This document shows, one piece after another, positions 49,930 through 58,442 of a DNA stretch of 64,000 nt. The DNA is from an uncultured bacterium. Its GTDB lineage: Bacteria > Acidobacteriota > HRBIN11 > JAKEFK01. The stretch covers positions 64,001 to 128,000 of the forward strand of contig CAVZQN010000003.1 in assembly GCA_963777505.1 (NCBI GenBank), in the 5' to 3' direction. The notes beneath the pieces are model-generated. The model was not told the DNA's origin. It did no database searches and was given only the letters and a program-made list of their open reading frames with translations. The translations under genes were made by a program, and so were the position numbers. Position 1 is the stretch's first letter, and each line of letters begins with the position of its first letter.

Positions 49930-51576
49930 TTAAACGAGAAAAGCTTTTACTTTTGGCGCGTTCGAACCGTTGTTGGCGATCTTAACACTCGGAAGGAATT
50001 CCGGAGGACGGCGAACTTTCGTCGCCTGCTCAAAAGCATACGCAAGCTTGATCAAAGTTGGTTCACTGTAGGCTTGAGCAAAAAAGGAAATTCCGATCGG
50101 CAATCCTGAAACATAACCTGCAGGAACTGTGATGTGCGGATAGCCGGATACTGCAGATGCTGATGAATATCCGCCAATAAAGTGATCGCCATTTACATAA
50201 TCTGTAAGCCAGGCCGGACTTCCAGTTGGAGCAATCAGCGCATCGAGTTTATGCGTTTGGATCGTTAGATCGATTCCTTTCTCGCGCGCAAGCTCTTTGT
50301 TCTTCTTGACTGCATCCAGATATTCTTTGCTTGTGAGTGGCCCTTTCGCTTCGGATTTAATAAAAATATCTTGACCAAAGAAAGGCATTTCCTTGTCTCG
50401 ATTTTTTTCGTTGAAATCTATAGCTTCTTTCAGCGAATGAATCAGCGCTTCCGGGCCAAGATTTCCTAAATATGCATTCAGATTCGCTTTGAACTCGTAC
50501 AAAAGTACTTCAAGTTCTGTTTCATAAAAGTCACCAGGAATGTTCATATCCGCGGGGTCAACAATCACTGCGCCACGTTCTTTCATGACTTTGATCATGT
50601 CAGTCATCAGTTGATCGACATGTTCATTGAAGCCGAATGTTTTTCTGTTTACGCCAATTCGTGCGCCACGCAATCCGTCTTTATCTAGAAATTTCGTATA
50701 GTCCGAATGCATTTTGCCCTGGCTTTCATTCGTGATTTTATCGCGCGGATCGATTCCGGTTAGAGCCCCCAGAAGTATTGCAGCATCTGTGACGTTTCGT
50801 GTCATTGGGCCTGCGGTGTCTTGAGTATGCGCAATCGGAATGATTCCGGCGCGGCTCACTAAACCGAGTGTGGGTTTGATTCCAACAAGTGAGCAGTGCG
50901 TTGAAGGACAAACGATAGAGCCATCTGTTTCAGTTCCAATTGATCCGGCACACAGATTCGCTGCAGTAGCTGCTCCCGAACCGGAACTCGAACCGCAAGG
51001 ATTCCGATCCAAAGCATATGGATTTTTCGTTTGACCACCGCGTCCACTCCAGCCGCTGGTGGAACGGCTTGATCGAAAGTTGGCCCATTCACTCAAGTTC
51101 GTTTTGCCAAGAATGATGGCTCCAGCTTTTCGCAATCTTTCCGCAACAAATGCATCCTGCGCAGGTTTGGATCCAACTAACGCAAGTGAACCAGCAGTTG
51201 TCATCATCCGGTCTGCGGTGTCGATGTTGTCTTTGATCAAAATCGGAATGCCGTGAAGCGGACTTCGTGGTCCTTTTTCTTTCAGTTCGCGATCAAGAGC
51301 TTCAGCAATGTCCATCGCTTCCGGATTGATTTCAATAACAGAATTGATTGTGGGACCATGTTTATCAACCTGATCAATTCTTTTGATATACGCTTCAGTA
51401 AGCAATCGTGATGTGATCTTTCCGGATTTGAAACTACTTTGCAATTCAAGAATCGTTGCGTTTTCAAATTCAGATAAATCCAGTTCCGCAGTGAATGAAA
51501 AACTATTGAAGATGGGATGTGCAATTGATACGGCGCAAGCTGTTGCAGCCGTTTTCAAGAAATCTCTGCGCTTCAT
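49930..51576 (-). CDS. Tat-exported amidase-signature family amidase
   Basis: KRRDFLK; GGAGG SD; IKDNI; GSSSGSG; GTETDGSI. Confidence 0.94.
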   Translation of the reverse strand: MKRRDFLKTAATACAVSIAHPIFNSFSFTAELDLSEFENATILELQSSFKSGKITSRLLTEAYIKRIDQVDKHGPTINSVIEINPEAMDIAEALDRELKEKGPRSPLHGIPILIKDNIDTADRMMTTAGSLALVGSKPAQDAFVAERLRKAGAIILGKTNLSEWANFRSSRSTSGWSGRGGQTKNPYALDRNPCGSSSGSGAATAANLCAGSIGTETDGSIVCPSTHCSLVGIKPTLGLVSRAGIIPIAHTQDTAGPMTRNVTDAAILLGALTGIDPRDKITNESQGKMHSDYTKFLDKDGLRGARIGVNRKTFGFNEHVDQLMTDMIKVMKERGAVIVDPADMNIPGDFYETELEVLLYEFKANLNAYLGNLGPEALIHSLKEAIDFNEKNRDKEMPFFGQDIFIKSEAKGPLTSKEYLDAVKKNKELAREKGIDLTIQTHKLDALIAPTGSPAWLTDYVNGDHFIGGYSSASAVSGYPHITVPAGYVSGLPIGISFFAQAYSEPTLIKLAYAFEQATKVRRPPEFLPSVKIANNGSNAPKVKAFLV

Positions 51577-51600
51577 CAAAGACCTCCTGTCTGTTTTTAG

Positions 51601-51685
51601 TAGCTCAACCGCCAAGACGCAAAGACGCCAAGAATTAAATCAAAAAAATATAACTTGGCGCCTTGGCGTCTTGGCGGTTGAGCTA
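51601..51685. repeat. Family A full inverted pair
   Basis: TAGCTCAACCGCCAAGACGCAAAGACGCCAAG-N21-CTTGGCGCCTTGGCGTCTTGGCGGTTGAGCTA. Confidence 0.88.
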
Positions 51686-51776: not shown

Positions 51777-52259
51777 TTAGGATTTTTGACTGAAGAATTC
51801 TTCAGCCCGTTTTTTTATTTCCTCATCTGTGACATCTTCTTTATGGGTAGCAATTGACCAATGATGACCGAATGGGTCAACAAGTTGACCATAACGATCA
51901 CCCCAAAAAGCATCCATTAAAGGCATCTTCACTGTTGCTCCGGCATCAACAGCCCTTTTAAAGGCCGCATCAGCGTCCTCAACATACACATGAACAACGA
52001 CAGGACTGGAAGCGCCAATCGACAATGGAGAAAGAGAATTCCATTGAGGATTTTCATCAACGAGCATTAACATCGAATCTCCGATCTTCATTTCAGCATG
52101 CATGACGCTCTTTCCATCCGGTCCATAATTGATGCGTCCACTCTCGGCGCCAAATGCTTTTTGATAGAAATCCATTGCTTTTTTCCCATCTCTAACAATC
52201 AGATGAGGCGTGAGCGTATTAAATCCTTTTGGTTTCGCTTGTACGTTTTTATTTGGCAT
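51777..52259 (-). CDS. VOC / PhnB-like glyoxalase family protein
   Basis: FYQKAFGA; MHAEMKIGDS; FWGDRYG...DPFGHHW. Confidence 0.92.
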   Translation of the reverse strand: MPNKNVQAKPKGFNTLTPHLIVRDGKKAMDFYQKAFGAESGRINYGPDGKSVMHAEMKIGDSMLMLVDENPQWNSLSPLSIGASSPVVVHVYVEDADAAFKRAVDAGATVKMPLMDAFWGDRYGQLVDPFGHHWSIATHKEDVTDEEIKKRAEEFFSQKS

Positions 52260-52306
52260 CAATGTTCTCCTTATTGATTAATAGTGCTTTGAAATACTAA
52301 TAATTC

Positions 52307-53089
52307 TCACAGAGCTTTGCCAAGGAGTTCATCAACTTTTTCGCGATATCTCCGGCTGATTGTGAGTTCTGTTGAGTTACGTAGAATGACGCGGAAATCT
52401 CCGTGAAACAGAGGTTGAAGCTCTTTGATTTGATCAATGTTAACGATGGCAGATTTGTGAATGCGAACAAACTTTTTCGGATCCAATTCGGATTCGAGAT
52501 TGTTCATCGCATCCCGTATCAAGTGTGACTCTTGTCCGGCATGAATCATGACGTATTTGCCCTGTGCTTCAATCCAATCGATTTCATCTGTTTTAAGAAA
52601 CGAAACTCTTCCTTTACTTTTGATGATCAATCGATCCAAATAATGTTGATGTACTTTTAGCTCTTTCAACAAAGCTACAAGTTCGCGATTACTTGAGCCT
52701 TCATGATCCTGGGAGACTTGAGCTTTTCCACGTTCGAGAGCTTCCTGAAATCGTTTTTTGTCGAAGGGTTTCAAAAGATAATCAAGAGCATGGACTTCAA
52801 AAGCCTGAATCGCATAGCGATCGAATGCAGTAACAAAAATTACGCGAGGCATGTTGGACGAATCCAATGATTGCAGCACCTCAAATCCATCCATTTCTGG
52901 CATTTGAATATCAAGAAATATCAAATCCGGATGAAGTGTCCGGATGCTTTCGACAGCATCTTCACCATCGTTACACACTTTTATTATTTCAATTTCAGGA
53001 TCCTCTTTTAGAAGACGTTCAATCCTGCGGCAGGCAATCGGTTCATCATCGATGATGCAAACCCGAATCAGTTGTTTTGTTTCAGTCAT
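52307..53089 (-). CDS. LytTR-family response regulator with canonical receiver
   Basis: IIDDEP; FLDIQMP; FVTAFD; YLLKP; FVRIHKSAIVN. Confidence 0.95.
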   Translation of the reverse strand: MTETKQLIRVCIIDDEPIACRRIERLLKEDPEIEIIKVCNDGEDAVESIRTLHPDLIFLDIQMPEMDGFEVLQSLDSSNMPRVIFVTAFDRYAIQAFEVHALDYLLKPFDKKRFQEALERGKAQVSQDHEGSSNRELVALLKELKVHQHYLDRLIIKSKGRVSFLKTDEIDWIEAQGKYVMIHAGQESHLIRDAMNNLESELDPKKFVRIHKSAIVNIDQIKELQPLFHGDFRVILRNSTELTISRRYREKVDELLGKAL

Positions 53090-53091
53090 TT

Positions 53092-55344
53092 TCAAGTTAC
53101 CTCATTGATGCAGGCGAGACGTGCATCCTTCGTCTGTGGTCCCTTGTGAACCGGAATTTCGAGTGTAACGCGTAGGCCACCTTCGGGCGCATTTACCATT
53201 TCGAATCGATAGTCATTTCCATACAACTGCATCAATCGTTCTCGCGTATTTGAAAGTCCTAAACCTGCACGTTCAGGGTTCATTCCTCTTTTCAATTTAG
53301 GCAATCCAGGGCCATTATCCTGAATACTGACTGTCAACATCCCATTATTTCTCCTGGCACTGATATCAATTTGGCCCGGTGTTTTTCGTGGCGCAATCCC
53401 ATGTCTGATTGCATTTTCAACAATAGGCTGTAAAACCAGGTTCGGAACAGATACTTTCATTGCCTGCGCATCTATATCCATTGTGACGCTAAGTCGATTC
53501 TGAAAACGCACACGTTCAATGGCAAGATAACAGTTCAAAAATTCAAGTTCCTTTTCAAATGGGATTTCATGCACTTGATTGCTGTTGACCGTCAGATGCA
53601 GAAAATGTTGAAGATTCTCAATCATTTCCTTGGCCGCGCTGGGATTCTCTTGCATCAATTCGGAAATTGAATTCAATGAATTGAACAAGAAATGTGGATG
53701 GAGTTGCATTTTTAACGCTTGCAGTCGCGCACGGCTCAGTTGAGCATTTAGCTTGGTGGTTCGTATTTTCTCTGCTTCAATTCGGCGGTGATATCGGAGA
53801 GAGTTTTCAACAGCAACGATTGTTAGATAACAAAGAATGTCGAATGCAAAAGGTGTCCGGGCAACATACACGGGCAATATTTCTAGAAAATCATAGTGTC
53901 CAAACTGGGCAGCTGAGAGTACCACGGCATAAGTGCCGGCTGCCAGGAATAAAACACAAATGAACCCAAGTAGATGGACCATCATATGTTTCCAGCGATG
54001 CTCTTGCTGAAGAGGGAATCTGGCAGAGAGTTTCAAAACAAGTGGAGTGAATAATGCCCAGATGTACCATCCGGTTGAAGCAACCATTTGTCCGGCCCAG
54101 TCGAAAGTCTTTCCTGCGCTGGCATCCCTGATTATGGCTTGAATCGCGAAATAAACAGCAAGGATTGTAAAAATTCCTGTAATCACAAGCCATCTTCGAA
54201 CGGTATTCGATGGTTCTGAATTAAACTCAACCGGCCGGATGCTTTCTTCTTGAGCTTGGTGTTGAACAACTTCATCAGATTTTCTTTTTTCAAGGACAAG
54301 AGGGATTTCGATCCGTGTCGTACTTTTTTCGGAAAGATTCGAGATACGAACAGCAATCGAAGTTTGATATAAGGCGTTAAGCCTTTCTAATAATTGATGG
54401 AGGCGAGGACTTTCAGAATCCGTGTAAAGGTCTGTAATTGTCAGCACAAGAGACGTTTCGGTTTTCGAACTTACGATAACCAAATGGAGCGGATCATTAT
54501 CACGTCTGCGGCGGATGGCATCTTCGATCGGTGCGTGCAAAATTAAGCTAGGTACGGTGCATTCCAGCGAATCGCGATCAAGATCAAATTTGATTTCAAC
54601 ACGGTTCGACAATCTGATGTTTTCAATTTCCAAATAGCATTTGAGAAGATCAACTTCTTCTCGTAGAGTTACTTCAGAATTTCCCGAATTTTCAAGCGTC
54701 ATCCGAAGATAATCACCCAGGCGGGCCACCATATCATCCGCTTCGTCAAGATTGCGGTTCATCAGGTTTGGAAGTTGATTCAAGTTTTTGAAAAGAAAAT
54801 CAGGATCGATTTGCATCTTCAACGATTCGATTTGCGATCGAATAATGCTGTCTTCAATTCGCGAAGAGTGAATTTCTGTTTCAACTGCGGTCCGATGATA
54901 GTTCAAGGCCAGGCAAACCGACAAAATCATTTGGTAGATCAGGAAGCGCCACATGAAGGAATTGACAAAGGACGCAGTCAGCATTTCGCTAACAGTTTTC
55001 AAATCACGTTCAGGATGAAATGCCCATTCAGTGAACAGGACGTAAATAATTCCATGGACTGATGCCAGCAATAATCCTGCGAGAAAATGAGCCAGCAGGC
55101 TTTTCAATCTTGATCCGGTATCGAATCGAAACCTAGCTGCGAGAGCCGCAATGATCGGAAACAATGCCGCCCATAGATACCACGTCGTAATTTGACGCAG
55201 AAGTTGATCCTTCCATTGAAACGTTACATTGGCAAAAGTCGAGGCAATGTAATACTGGACTACGAAGGCCAACGCGATGATCGTGGCCATTCCAACAACA
55301 CTCAACGCGTGTTTTTGTCGCATTTTTTGAACCTGGACATTCAT
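53092..55344 (-). CDS. LytS-type histidine kinase with two tandem membrane-sensor plus kinase modules; the first module is degenerate
   Basis: Module 2 has QLHPHFLFNSLN, VENAIRHG, DNGPG and GLGL. Module 1 has QIDPDFLFKNLN, IEDAIRR and DLYTD. Confidence 0.92.
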   Translation of the reverse strand: MNVQVQKMRQKHALSVVGMATIIALAFVVQYYIASTFANVTFQWKDQLLRQITTWYLWAALFPIIAALAARFRFDTGSRLKSLLAHFLAGLLLASVHGIIYVLFTEWAFHPERDLKTVSEMLTASFVNSFMWRFLIYQMILSVCLALNYHRTAVETEIHSSRIEDSIIRSQIESLKMQIDPDFLFKNLNQLPNLMNRNLDEADDMVARLGDYLRMTLENSGNSEVTLREEVDLLKCYLEIENIRLSNRVEIKFDLDRDSLECTVPSLILHAPIEDAIRRRRDNDPLHLVIVSSKTETSLVLTITDLYTDSESPRLHQLLERLNALYQTSIAVRISNLSEKSTTRIEIPLVLEKRKSDEVVQHQAQEESIRPVEFNSEPSNTVRRWLVITGIFTILAVYFAIQAIIRDASAGKTFDWAGQMVASTGWYIWALFTPLVLKLSARFPLQQEHRWKHMMVHLLGFICVLFLAAGTYAVVLSAAQFGHYDFLEILPVYVARTPFAFDILCYLTIVAVENSLRYHRRIEAEKIRTTKLNAQLSRARLQALKMQLHPHFLFNSLNSISELMQENPSAAKEMIENLQHFLHLTVNSNQVHEIPFEKELEFLNCYLAIERVRFQNRLSVTMDIDAQAMKVSVPNLVLQPIVENAIRHGIAPRKTPGQIDISARRNNGMLTVSIQDNGPGLPKLKRGMNPERAGLGLSNTRERLMQLYGNDYRFEMVNAPEGGLRVTLEIPVHKGPQTKDARLACINEVT

Positions 55345-55430: not shown

Positions 55431-55505
55431 CAGAAAATCAGGGGCGGTGATCAGGCCGCCCCACCATGGAGGAGCAATGCAGGGGCACAAGACTCTGTGC
55501 CCCTG
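55431..55505 (-). terminator. Two GC hairpins downstream of the TonB receptor (terminator or REP-like)
   Basis: CAGGGGCACA-N6-TGTGCCCCTG; GGGGCGG-N8-CCGCCCC-TGATTTTCT. Confidence 0.6.
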
Positions 55506-55514
55506 TATGTACTC

Positions 55515-58442
55515 TTAAAAACTGTATCGAACTCCCAAGCGCAAAGCCCTGGGTGAAATCAATTCATCGATTCGATTGAACGAAGCGGAGGATACGTTTC
55601 GGAGTCGTCGAACAACCGCATTCGTATTCGTTACATTAAACAGATTTGCGGACACGGCAAGACGACCATAATTCGCGAAATCGAAGCCTTTTTCAAACTG
55701 TAGATCCAGTGTAAAAATGTCATCGAATCGCCGGTCGCCAAATGGCTCAACAAGGATCAGGTGATTTGTAGTGCCCAAAGAGGAAGCCAGTGAATCATCA
55801 CGGATCGTTGCAAGCAGAACGTAAGGATAGCCCTGCTGATAACGGCCAAAAGCGCCAACAGAAAAATCCCATGGCAACTGATAAACACCGCTCATCTTGA
55901 ATTGCCATTCTGAATAAGGATAAACACCCGCTTTTCCGCTTCCACCGGGAGCAAAAGCATAGGGATGACCATCAAGAAATGGCAAGTTTGTTGGATCGAA
56001 TGGAAATACCTGACCGCTCAAGCCGCCATCACCAATGTAGAACGAAAGTGAATCACCACCATCATAGTTAGCTTTTTGTTTCTGCAGGGTTAAGCCAGCA
56101 TTCACCATGAAGTTGTTGCTCATCCGTTTGCGAGCGGTGATATCAATCCCGTCATATTTAGTTTTGTAATCATTCGCATTCGTCAAGATCTGATCGCCAT
56201 CATCAACACCGCCGTAAACGAAATACGGAACGTTGAAATTTCCCAGAGCTGTATTTGCAGTAAACGTACCACCAGGGACAAAGTCAGCTTCTGATATTCC
56301 GAAAGGTACGATCACAGTGTTATCACGGTAGTCGCGATGAGTGTAAGTGGCACTGACTGATAGATCTTGCATGAGTTGGCGTTCGAACCCAACGATGTAT
56401 TCCCAGGAACTTGAATTCCTGAGATCCTCATCGATCTTCCTGCTATCTTCAAATGCAGCCAGATCAAATGTTGGCCCATTCAATCCGCCAAAATAAGAAG
56501 GTGGTCCGGTAATTTCATCCGGAGTAATAACACGATCACCGTTGCTGTTTTCGAATGGCAGAATCGCACCGTTGTAAACGAAGGTGGGATTCTGATACGA
56601 AATGAATGCGTTATTCAACGCATCGTAATATCGTGCGAAATTTCCACGAACGATGGTCTTTCCATCTCCGGTGAAATCGTACGTCACGCCAAGACGCGGC
56701 GAAATGTCATTGAATGAAATTCCGGGATCATTGCCCGGATATTCCAGCTGACCAACAAGCGATTCGAAACCCGGTACTCCCGGAATTGATGAAGCTAGAT
56801 TTTTTCCGGTTTGATGATCAAAGCGGAATCCAAGATTTAGAGTCAGCCTGTTTCGGCGATATGTATCTGTCGCGTAAAAACTAGCACGATCTAAATCAAC
56901 TCTTCCATCAATCCAATGCTGGGCATAAAGGATCCCTGAAGTCAGTGGCCCTTGTGGCGTAGTTTGGTTGTAGTCAACAATGAACACACCATTTCCATAC
57001 GAACTGAAGGTGTGAAGATTTGCTGATTTGTATTCGAATCCGAACTTAAATTCATGATCGCCACCCATTACGTTTTCGCTGAAGTAATTTCCATCAACAA
57101 CGAAATCATGCGCAGGGCGATCAATGGGGGCCGTGTAAAACAGAGTGTCTTCGTAGCGTGGAATGGCGGCCAGGTAGATCATCGGTATATCTTTTCCACC
57201 ATTCGGTTTTAATGTGAATCCGAGACCGACGTATCCGTAACGTCCGGTGACAATCATTTGATCGCTGGGGATCCAGGTATGTTGTGCTGTCCAGATGCCT
57301 GGAAGGATCGTATCGGTACCGGCTTGTTCCCAAAGTGTTTCCGGAGCTTGCAGCGCAATCGAAATTCCTGCTCTTCCGGATTTCGTTTTTTCGCCTTGGA
57401 AGTATCCGAATTGCGATTCATGAGCAGGAGACCAACTCGCGTTTGCTTTAAAGTTGAAATCTTCGAGTTCAGTGAGATCAGCAGTATTCGCTGTTGTAAT
57501 CAAACCAATATCGTTTTTGCGATACGCACCCCAAACAAAGAATTTGTCTTTTATGATCGGTCCGCCGATATCAAAACCATAGTCTTTAACTTCATCGAGC
57601 CGGTTTGATTGAGCTCCGATCGATGCGAGTTCATCAGGTGTGTTATCGCCTTGAAGACTATCACCGGCGTAAAAATAGGAAGCACTTCCTTCCCATCGAT
57701 TACCACCACGTTTTGTGACAATGTTAACGATCACACCACCGGTCGGTGCGGACGCATCATTTCCACCGGTAGAAATTTGCAGTTCTTCAAATGCATCGAA
57801 ATCAAAATAGGTTGGTGATGCACCCATAGCTCCTGGGTCGGTTGCATTCACACCATCGTAATTGAAGATTGTATTGTCATCGTTTCCGCCTCGCGCAATA
57901 AACGATGCTTGCTGTCCAGACTCAGAACCTGCGACATTGTAACGATCTGAATCAACACCAGTAGTTTGATCGATGATGGTCCATGGGTCGCGAGCACTGG
58001 GAACATCTTCCAAATAATCACGACTGTACGTATCGGATGTGCCTGTTTTTTTGGTATCGACAACAGGTGTTTCGCCGATTACTGTAAATTCCTCAGCGAG
58101 CGACGGCCGCAATGTAATTTCAAGCTGAACCTGCGAGCCAGTGCTGATGCGTACTTCTTCCTGACGTACTTCCGTAAATCCTTCGATTGAAAAATTCACA
58201 GAATAAACTCCAGGAGGCAGATTCGCAAAGCGGAAACCGCCAGAAGCACCAGACGTTGCAGTCTGTGTAGGAATTTCATTTGATTCAAGCGTAATCAGTA
58301 CGCCAGGTAGTGGACTGCCTTTATCATCTACAGCTTTACCGTAGACGGAACCCGTCTTCATTGAAACTTGTGCGAAGAGGGGATAGGCAATTGCAGAAGC
58401 AAAGAGAACCACTACCATTAGTATGAACGATTTAGTTTTCAT
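55515..58442 (-). CDS. TonB-dependent receptor, Oar-like, with N-terminal carboxypeptidase-regulatory-like domain
   Basis: Signal peptide; G...D..G.PLPGV...F..LPPG.Y; GGVIVNIVTKRG plug motif; C-terminal PRALRLGVRYSF. Confidence 0.93.
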   Translation of the reverse strand: MKTKSFILMVVVLFASAIAYPLFAQVSMKTGSVYGKAVDDKGSPLPGVLITLESNEIPTQTATSGASGGFRFANLPPGVYSVNFSIEGFTEVRQEEVRISTGSQVQLEITLRPSLAEEFTVIGETPVVDTKKTGTSDTYSRDYLEDVPSARDPWTIIDQTTGVDSDRYNVAGSESGQQASFIARGGNDDNTIFNYDGVNATDPGAMGASPTYFDFDAFEELQISTGGNDASAPTGGVIVNIVTKRGGNRWEGSASYFYAGDSLQGDNTPDELASIGAQSNRLDEVKDYGFDIGGPIIKDKFFVWGAYRKNDIGLITTANTADLTELEDFNFKANASWSPAHESQFGYFQGEKTKSGRAGISIALQAPETLWEQAGTDTILPGIWTAQHTWIPSDQMIVTGRYGYVGLGFTLKPNGGKDIPMIYLAAIPRYEDTLFYTAPIDRPAHDFVVDGNYFSENVMGGDHEFKFGFEYKSANLHTFSSYGNGVFIVDYNQTTPQGPLTSGILYAQHWIDGRVDLDRASFYATDTYRRNRLTLNLGFRFDHQTGKNLASSIPGVPGFESLVGQLEYPGNDPGISFNDISPRLGVTYDFTGDGKTIVRGNFARYYDALNNAFISYQNPTFVYNGAILPFENSNGDRVITPDEITGPPSYFGGLNGPTFDLAAFEDSRKIDEDLRNSSSWEYIVGFERQLMQDLSVSATYTHRDYRDNTVIVPFGISEADFVPGGTFTANTALGNFNVPYFVYGGVDDGDQILTNANDYKTKYDGIDITARKRMSNNFMVNAGLTLQKQKANYDGGDSLSFYIGDGGLSGQVFPFDPTNLPFLDGHPYAFAPGGSGKAGVYPYSEWQFKMSGVYQLPWDFSVGAFGRYQQGYPYVLLATIRDDSLASSLGTTNHLILVEPFGDRRFDDIFTLDLQFEKGFDFANYGRLAVSANLFNVTNTNAVVRRLRNVSSASFNRIDELISPRALRLGVRYSF

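Follow-up and report, generated by a model that had tools for sequence, protein, structure and literature searches.

A single-chain tandem sensor histidine kinase joining a degenerate and an intact PF06580 module in an uncultured acidobacterium

A gene on the reverse strand at 53092..55344 of the window, as we call the whole 64,000-nucleotide stretch of acidobacterial DNA that was analysed, encodes a sensor histidine kinase of 750 amino acids in which two homologous modules stand end to end, the first stripped of its catalytic motifs and the second intact. The anatomy of the protein, its conservation and recurrence among relatives, and a complementary retention of residues between the halves lead us to regard as somewhat probable a single-chain 'built-in dimer', in which modules 1 and 2 would share one bundle, autophosphorylation would occur in cis, and the output would pass through a LytTR regulator. 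Histidine kinases are textbook homodimers, and their identical protomers make cis and trans phosphorylation, asymmetry, and the helix face that serves the partner's histidine hard to study. In joined and diverged protomers, each site occurs singly, so that it can be mutated independently.

The reading frame is uninterrupted over its 750 codons in the ORF list and translation, and an alternative start at Met8 would give a product of 743 residues, identical to a 743-residue entry (P0002) in the protein collection. Pfam analysis detected the PF06580 (His_kinase) domain twice, at residues 171-248 (71.4 bits) and 539-618 (82.8 bits), both above the gathering score of 25.2 bits. HATPase_c was confined to the second half (residues 636-732, E 2e-12), so that the two matches that the earlier note, made from the letters alone, had proposed to seek with each profile were obtained for PF06580 and not for HATPase_c. 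Alignment of residues 1-370 with residues 371-750 gave 29% identity over 312 aligned residues (E 8e-48), with 27% in the transmembrane (TM) region, 34% in DHp and 23.5% in CA. Hydropathy and AlphaFold helices agreed on four TM helices in either half. The real open frame, the two homologous modules, and the sensor of about four TM helices per half were thus read correctly in that note. The whole chain was predicted with a pLDDT of 83.7 and a pTM of 0.66, the latter being a whole-chain value that is not attributable to contacts between the modules.

Module 2 is the live half. It consists of a four-TM membrane sensor (residues 382-516; 53797..54201, reverse strand; hydropathy and AlphaFold), a PF06580 DHp domain (residues 517-618; 53491..53796, reverse strand; Pfam 83 bits and codon positions), and a CA domain of the HATPase_c type (residues 619-733; 53146..53490, reverse strand; Pfam E 2e-12 and invariant columns). 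The phospho-acceptor His551 (codon 53692-53694) lies in a P-H-F-L-F-N box and is invariant in 53 of 53 proteins. The CA boxes are represented by N644, D676-G678-G680, and G694-G696, and the closest solved structure to this domain is the GanS kinase domain (6swk/6swj).

Module 1 has the same layout. Its four-TM sensor, with an intracellular N-terminus, spans residues 10-148 (54901..55317, reverse strand; hydropathy and AlphaFold), and the AlphaFold helices of the module cover residues 2-37, 44-71, 79-108, and 115-179. In its DHp domain (residues 149-248; 54601..54900, reverse strand; Pfam 71 bits, motif table and codons), Asp182 (codon 54799-54801) occupies the phospho-histidine position, and the alpha2 motif ARLGDYLR is retained with Arg214 (codon 54703-54705). 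The following pseudo-CA (residues 249-352; 54289..54600, reverse strand), delimited by motifs, the AlphaFold model, and conservation, has Asp275 for the N-box Asn and is missing G1, G2, and the ATP lid. Pfam found no HATPase_c match in module 1 at E<=10, and in the AlphaFold model the order of strands and helices in the pseudo-CA matches that of the live CA. All the motifs listed in the earlier note were recovered, namely QLHPHFLFN, ENAIRH, DNGPG, and GLGL in module 2, and QIDPDFLFK, EDAIRR, and DLYTD with no G2 in module 1, and this motif anatomy agrees with one phosphorylatable histidine, one ATP site, one dead module, and one intact module. A polar linker (residues 353-381; 54202..54288, reverse strand) joins the modules; it is predicted to be disordered over residues 356-377 (pLDDT <50), and among relatives its mean identity is 0.15 and its length varies from 22 to 52 residues.

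The label 'LytS-type' that the protein had been given holds for its DHp, which is PF06580, and is otherwise too loose. LytS and BtsS (YehU) carry a 5TMR-LYT sensor and a GAF domain ahead of DHp, and Pfam detected neither 5TMR-LYT (PF07694) nor GAF in the kinase even at E<=10. The NCBIfam search with the kinase reached no LytS/BtsS equivalog, and no Pfam family was found for the 4-TM sensor. The sensor motif W(Y)xWA-x-x-x-P...RF is present in both halves, as had been noticed, but it is not special to the tandem kinase: single-module relatives have W-Y-x-W-A-x3-P...R-F as their consensus too, which makes it a family motif.

The tandem architecture was found in 129 of 259 fetched relatives, a count which, like the others given here, is skewed to the query's type and non-independent, because the protein sets are the best matches to this query and are phylogenetically related. 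Among these tandem proteins, the histidine is missing from the N-terminal half in 98 and from the C-terminal half in 11, and both halves keep it in 20; in none of the 129 does the histidine lie in one half with the ATP motifs solely in the other. A tree of the modules placed 78 of 83 N-terminal dead modules in a single clade (support 100), with their partners in a matching clade. In 18 small clades, the N- and C-terminal modules of one protein are close kin, and independent duplication seems to account for at least 15 small clades. Scanning metagenomes with module 1 returned two loci. In 82 loci, mostly of single-module relatives, no gene for an unfused His-less module adjoined the kinase gene except in the frameshifted locus L001. 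We consider it possible, although short of an even chance, that fusion of protomers arose many times in PF06580 kinases and that the halves then divided the work, one keeping the histidine and ATP site and the other the alpha2 Arg face and a sensor.

The evidence that bears most directly on pairing of the halves comes from one position in the alpha2 helix. This column is Arg in 127 of 130 single-module kinases and in 95 of 95 His-less modules (84 N-terminal and 11 C-terminal). It has been lost in 41 of the 95 live partners, including module 2 of the query, where column comparison places His583 (codon 53596-53598) instead; the remaining 54 live partners still have it, so the dead half is not in every case the sole keeper of the Arg. 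Mapped on a FastTree module tree built from 239 columns, the position has undergone at least 20 changes among 94 live partners and none among 94 dead modules. Adjoining columns of alpha2 and of the signalling helix show the same trend of retention and loss. In the predicted helices, the hairpin turn at residue 567 is flanked at an equal distance of 16 residues by His551 on one side and residue 583 on the other, which puts the two at the same level. We take this complementary retention, as read from the alignments, to favour pairing of the halves with real evolutionary support. It also draws attention to a conserved Arg in the PF06580 DHp that was previously unremarked, and it yields a testable residue pair, H551 of module 2 and R214 of module 1.

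Complex prediction weakly supports the same pairing. Module 1 and module 2 gave an ipSAE of 0.55, compared with 0.01 for the best of three controls, and this value falls among the passing scores of up to 0.60 that include 18 of 157 solved complexes and both passing mismatches. The mark itself was reached by 116 of the 157 solved complexes and by 2 of 215 mismatches. The runs agreed in at least 93% of contacts, with partner pLDDT of at least 75; as kinase dimers are among solved structures, the pass may reflect likeness to known dimers. The idea in the earlier note that the halves form an intramolecular pseudo-heterodimer therefore gains from the complementary loss and retention, the strict helix register described below, and the recurrence of the arrangement in either order, and it is held back by the weak complex prediction for the pairing.

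On the built-in dimer reading, the last TM helix of each 4-TM sensor would continue into a PF06580 DHp hairpin, the two hairpins would pack as one four-helix bundle, and the two sensors would pack as one 8-TM sensor. The bundle might be formed inside one chain or be swapped between two chains. The sole CA would phosphorylate the sole histidine, His551, in cis, and module 1 would make up in trans for the alpha2 residues missing from module 2 (H583), with R214 placed level with the phospho-histidine. The phosphate would then go to the LytTR regulator encoded next to the kinase.

The gene for this putative cognate regulator (52307..53095, reverse strand) encodes a REC and a LytTR domain (Pfam Response_reg 94.9 bits and LytTR 96.5 bits) and overlaps the kinase stop by 4 bases. 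Its best NCBIfam model is BtsR at 187.6 bits, under the 246 cut-off of that model. A LytTR regulator follows the tandem kinase in six of six loci examined. Upstream of the kinase lies a gene for an outer-membrane protein (55515..58442, reverse strand) with CarboxypepD_reg, Plug, and beta-barrel regions assigned by Pfam. A gene of this type is directly upstream in all four loci of the close subfamily (the window, the paralogue in its own genome, L001, and L081) and is not upstream of the kinase in L009 and L045. As a conserved neighbour, it is a possible target or partner of the kinase system. Between the two genes, a consensus scan and the sequence itself revealed a GC-rich hairpin with a T tail (55441..55462, reverse strand); it resembles a terminator and is a mere hint, because shuffled sequence contains in total at least as many such sites as the region does. 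Immediately upstream there is a second hairpin. A promoter scan of the region likewise found sites no more numerous than in shuffles.

The main alternative, which we judge unlikely though deserving of serious attention, is that two tandem chains dimerise, with module 2 and module 2' forming an ordinary homodimeric kinase and module 1 and module 1' a separate, non-catalytic bundle that would act as an accessory sensor, scaffold, or docking site for the regulator. Histidine kinases normally form homodimers, and such an assembly would also explain why the histidine and ATP motifs always share a half. The 20 proteins with histidine in both halves and the weakness of the complex prediction also speak for it. 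However, in 41 of 95 cases the bundle of module 2 with module 2' would be without the Arg on both chains, even though nearly all single-module relatives have it, and the catalytically useless bundle of module 1 with module 1' would be the one that retains it throughout. The sole connection between the two bundles would be the linker, which is a poor conduit for signals because it is disordered, poorly conserved, and variable in length. This arrangement would also leave without obvious purpose the strict register of the dead half, in which the TM4 Tyr and the H-box Pro are spaced 44 residues apart in 53 of 53 proteins, as they are in module 2.

Another reading, that module 1 is a functionless relic of tandem duplication in decay while module 2 acts alone, is very improbable. 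Every catalytic motif of module 1 is gone, and its pseudo-CA is poorly conserved (mean identity 0.24), varies from 49 to 95 residues among relatives, and has been deleted in relatives of about 600 residues, whose module 1 is 4TM plus DHp alone (predicted fold of this short form, pLDDT 77.6 and pTM 0.60). The rest of the module does not behave as a relic would. Its frame is open, and conservation of its sensor and DHp extends to relatives with only about 25-30% overall identity, at mean pairwise identities of 0.33 and 0.45, respectively; among orthologues the sensor is conserved to much the same degree as that of module 2 (0.32). Residues A202 and R214 never vary, the ARLG motif and P181 hardly do, and the DHp hairpin is 49 residues long in 48 of 53 proteins for module 1 and in 53 of 53 for module 2. 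These conserved residues, the fixed spacing, and the Arg held by every dead module already contradict the relic reading. The nearest DNA relatives have module 1 amino-acid identities of only 51% (same-genus orthologue) and 56% (L001), at which synonymous sites would be saturated, and dN/dS was replaced by amino-acid conservation and length constraints. By these measures module 1 is under selection and is no decaying relic, and the neutral evolution that had been named as a possible objection is rejected.

It is scarcely conceivable that the fusion arose in assembly or sequencing, through a lost stop or a misjoin of two adjacent kinase genes in the linker, since although copies split into two ORFs by a frameshift are found in the same genome (C3:270826-273055) and in L001/L087, and public reads cover the linker poorly (no listed run contained above 0.10 of the sampled words, no RNA run was among those listed, and a single 203-base contig, gap-free, lies on 54228-54427, with none spanning the gene), the same fusion recurs across many independent assemblies, in well over 100 proteins altogether, and in seven of seven genomes of the window's family. 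It is the splits, rather than the fusions, that look like errors, because the two frameshifts fall at different sites, one of them coincides with an A5 run, and another gene of L045, for an M13 peptidase, is split likewise. Homologues in the form of separate genes, which had been expected to tell against a fused kinase, thus exist as two-ORF copies that appear to be sequencing errors.

If protomers did fuse many times and the halves then divided the work, these proteins would be a natural family of obligate pseudo-heterodimeric histidine kinases. One histidine, one CA, and one trans-acting alpha2 face would then suffice per four-helix bundle, autophosphorylation in these kinases would proceed in cis, and the 8-TM hetero-sensor could route two different inputs into one output. 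The family is also an example of a bacterial pseudokinase kept for structure or signalling.

A literature search in which subscription journals were thinly covered found no description of a PF06580 kinase in which a dead half is fused in tandem to a second one, so that the prior characterisation named as a possible objection in the earlier note did not come to light in it. The single-module group of LytS, BtsS (YehU), YpdA, and AlgZ shares with the tandem kinase the PF06580 DHp, the CA fold, and an adjoining LytTR regulator, and the GanS kinase domain is its top structural match (E 1e-8) and only sequence match in the PDB. The tandem kinase differs from this group in that its module is duplicated within the chain with one copy dead, and in the absence of 5TMR-LYT, GAF, and an NCBIfam equivalog. 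To our knowledge, AlgZ/FimS is without recognisable ATP-binding motifs.

DivL (4q20) was among the fold matches of the kinase, and the kinase heterodimer RetS-GacS is cited in a study of the Fas system (PMC12675982). Both resemble the present case in that a kinase-fold protein without phosphorylation chemistry of its own regulates or pairs with an active kinase. They are, however, separate proteins of other DHp families, and in neither is the protein covalently joined to a live copy of itself.

TodS is soluble. TodS-type double sensor kinases likewise carry two autokinase modules per polypeptide, and a paper on TodS describes seven domains and cites a multi-step phosphorelay through both autokinase modules (PMC4321377). 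Unlike TodS, the tandem kinase has membrane sensors in both modules, a module 1 without catalytic motifs, and no receiver domain, as Pfam gave no Response_reg match inside the chain.

Eukaryotic JAK kinases carry a JH2-JH1 tandem of pseudokinase and kinase, and full-length ABC transporters occur with one degenerate site. In these proteins, by analogy only, one copy lost catalysis after the chain had duplicated internally and was kept for regulation or structure; their folds and chemistry are unrelated to those of the tandem histidine kinase.

A close parallel is FasB/FasC of group A Streptococcus, which are reported to heterodimerise and not to homodimerise, with FasC proposed as a pseudokinase that can do without its kinase domain; the required histidine (H246) is on FasC, the authors favour trans phosphorylation, and the output is the ComE-like regulator FasA (PMC12675982). 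The likeness lies in two kinase-like membrane units, one of them, FasC in the Fas case, proposed as a pseudokinase, and in the regulator, since FasA we take to be of the LytTR type. The Fas partners are products of separate genes, whereas the tandem kinase is a single 750-residue chain and fusion is the rule in its relatives. The required histidine also sits differently, on the pseudokinase in the Fas account and, in the tandem kinase, on the half that holds the sole ATP site, the dead half having Asp. The tandem kinase family may accordingly be viewed as the fused counterpart of unfused pairs of live and dead kinases such as FasB/FasC.

The gene at 53092..55344 on the reverse strand, an open frame of 750 codons, encodes a member of a conserved family of sensor kinases with two modules in tandem on one chain. 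Pfam found the PF06580 'His_kinase' domain twice (residues 171-248, 71 bits; residues 539-618, 83 bits) and HATPase_c once, at residues 636-732 only; no HATPase_c match was obtained in the N-terminal half (module 1) even at E ≤ 10. An alignment of the two halves spans 312 residues with 29% identity (E 8e-48); by region, identity is 27% in the membrane part, 34% in the helical hairpin (DHp) and 23.5% in the ATP-binding (CA) part. Module 2 has a complete set of catalytic motifs (H551, N644, D676-x-G678-x-G680, G694-x-G696). In module 1 the His position is occupied by D182 and the N-box Asn is replaced by D275, and the G1, G2 and lid elements are missing. The observation in the earlier note of a dead module and an intact module in one chain was thus accurate in all details, with domain hits, half-to-half alignment and motif residues in agreement. 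The W-Y-x-W-A...P...R-F motif that the same note had recorded in both sensors is indeed present, but it is also the consensus of single-module relatives. Each half has four transmembrane helices, an even number, so that both DHp domains come to lie in the cytoplasm, and Arg/Lys residues precede the first helix both at the N-terminus and at the start of module 2. The outside loops of both sensors are short, which suggests sensing inside the membrane or via a partner protein. In the AlphaFold model (pLDDT 83.7, pTM 0.66), the CA counterpart of module 1 (pseudo-CA) is predicted to follow the strand and helix order of the live CA with the lid missing, and residues 356-377 are disordered.

Relatives were collected as the best 120 of 455 from a word-indexed search and the best 150 of 108,515 matches (E ≤ 0.001) from an exhaustive search of cluster representatives. 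Two kinase cores were present in 129 of the 259 fetched relatives, of which 98 have a His-less N half with an intact C half, 11 the reverse order and 20 a His in both halves (5 of these 20 with all motifs in both), counts in which the query's own type is over-represented because the best matches to the query were fetched. In none of the 129 does one half carry the His while the ATP motifs are restricted to the other. In relatives of about 600 aa, module 1 is reduced to the four-helix sensor and DHp hairpin, followed by a full module 2. In a FastTree phylogeny of 357 modules over 239 transmembrane and DHp columns, 78 of 83 dead N-terminal modules fell into a single clade (support 100), and 79 of their live partners into another (support 93) adjoining single-module kinases, from which it follows that the query's family arose from one old duplication. 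In a further 18 small clades (27 proteins), the two modules of a given protein are closely related to each other; this indicates, as far as the tree goes, numerous independent tandem duplications, and all three outcomes are seen (both halves live, only N dead, only C dead). One small clade (P0137, P0145 and P0153) has an N half with His and without ATP motifs, and a C half with an odd G1 region (no DxGxG) and a normal G2. In sister genomes (L092:1507-3879, L093:276-2511, L094:1-1570), two single-module PF06580 kinases of about 387-433 aa and 364 aa, both with the His, are encoded by separate neighbouring genes; the box of the second kinase, QVYPHFLFN, is unusual, and its core scores lower.

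Within the window's taxonomic class, module-1-type genes were found in all 7 genomes of its own family, often several in each, and in 0 of 6 genomes of the other two families. The query's own genome contains two more tandem paralogues. The third tandem kinase of this genome, at G000:C6:270628-272775, is a 754-aa open frame with 32% identity to query residues 18-732. For two other kinase paralogues (C9:5323-6285 and C4:25665-26633, in frames of 591 and 610 aa), similarity is limited to module 2, and about 260 additional N-terminal residues are present.

Conservation was examined in 53 full-length family members (alignment A1). Mean pairwise identity was 0.33 for the sensor, 0.45 for the DHp and 0.24 for the pseudo-CA of module 1, 0.15 for the linker, and 0.32, 0.63 and 0.61 for the sensor, DHp and CA of module 2. 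The conserved Tyr of the fourth transmembrane helix and the H-box Pro are 44 residues apart in both modules of all 53 proteins, and the DHp hairpin is 49 residues long in 48 of 53 (module 1) and 53 of 53 (module 2). These identities and fixed spacings mean that, in the dead half, the sensor, signalling-helix register and DHp hairpin are conserved. The pseudo-CA (49-95 residues) and the linker (22-52 residues) appear relaxed. The alignment therefore argues that the dead half is under selection, in part only.

We then compared DHp columns among single-module kinases, live halves and dead halves. The ancestral alpha2 motif ARLGDxLR is kept in the dead half (A207-R214 in the query), from which the live half has drifted (ENLQHFLH in module 2). 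Its Arg (R214 in module 1, H583 in module 2) is present in 127 of 130 single-module kinases and in all 95 His-less modules (84 N-terminal and 11 C-terminal), but in only 54 of the 95 live partners. On the tree, this column requires a minimum of 20 changes among the 94 live partners and none among the 94 dead modules, and the same asymmetry recurs in independent C-dead lineages (e.g. P0131, P0135, P0199, P0229). In the AlphaFold helices, the hairpin turn is flanked by H551, 16 residues ahead of it, and residue 583, 16 residues beyond it, equal distances which place the Arg level with the phosphorylated His. In this pattern, each half retains what the other has lost, and this is the main new evidence. 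One would expect it if the two halves contributed to a common four-helix bundle, with the alpha2 face acting on the His of the partner.

On this basis, we lean towards a reading in which modules 1 and 2 would form a single pseudo-heterodimeric kinase core, as the earlier note had proposed, the single His being phosphorylated in cis and module 1 contributing the alpha2 face. Complex prediction of module 1 (residues 1-355) against module 2 (378-735), with the family alignment as input, gave ipSAE values of 0.56, 0.55 and 0.52 (best of three controls, 0.01), graded 'weak support' by the tool, in a range (≤0.60) that holds only 18 of 157 solved complexes and both passing mismatches. Of the 157 solved complexes, 116 reached the mark itself, as did 2 of 215 mismatches. 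The partners had pLDDT values of 75 or more, and the runs shared at least 93% of their contacts. Since kinase dimers are among the solved structures, the passing score may be due in part to likeness to them. The main rival, in which tandem chains dimerise and form separate bundles, is rather unlikely in our judgement, as complementary retention is not easily explained by pairing of module 2 with module 2 alone.

That the fusion is a misjoin artefact is very unlikely, because the same fused architecture occurs in many independent assemblies; public reads gave no direct confirmation of the linker. Split copies exist. A paralogous cassette in the query's own genome (G000:C3:270033-275499) comprises a barrel outer-membrane protein, a tandem kinase of the 'QLEPKF' subtype and a LytTR regulator; its kinase (C3:270826-273055) is divided into two overlapping ORFs of 274 and 508 aa, the frame change coinciding with an A5 run. 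The orthologue at L001:4995-7254 (same locus as L087), 56% identical, likewise consists of overlapping ORFs (282 and 477 aa), represented by P0232 and P0057, with the frame change at a different site, inside the pseudo-CA. We read both splits as probable sequencing errors. In a further assembly, an M13 peptidase adjoining a tandem kinase (L045:2715-4711) is likewise split into two ORFs with the N and C parts of its family, which suggests that this assembly is prone to frameshift errors.

The kinase stop codon is overlapped by 4 bases by a REC+LytTR regulator gene, an arrangement alike in all six tandem loci examined; one regulator per tandem kinase fits a single output. Directly upstream, in 4 of 4 loci of the close subfamily, lies a gene for an outer-membrane protein (CarboxypepD_reg-Plug-barrel), a candidate target. 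Between this gene and the kinase are two hairpins, one of them with a T tail, which make a separate transcript probable. The same strand also carries, downstream, a glyoxalase/bleomycin-resistance-fold protein (51777-52262) and a 561-aa ORF, amidase-like by eye (49930-51615).

In its DHp/CA core, the query is a PF06580 kinase of the ordinary kind, with GanS (6swk/6swj) as its best fold match and its sole sequence match in the PDB. The query is not a LytS/BtsS kinase in the strict sense, since it lacks 5TMR-LYT and GAF domains and does not reach any NCBIfam equivalog. In the literature searched, which mostly lay outside subscription journals, no paper was found that describes a PF06580 tandem kinase fused in one chain with one half dead. 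The pseudo-kinases or inhibitory kinases DivL and RetS are stand-alone proteins (RetS-GacS is cited in PMC12675982), and TodS carries two autokinase modules in one chain, for which a phosphorelay using both is cited (PMC4321377). Nearest in logic among studied systems is FasB/FasC/FasA of group A Streptococcus, in which two kinase-like proteins are reported to heterodimerise, one of them a proposed pseudokinase (PMC12675982). Unlike the single chain of the query, the Fas partners are separate proteins, and the required His is on the pseudokinase (PMC12675982).
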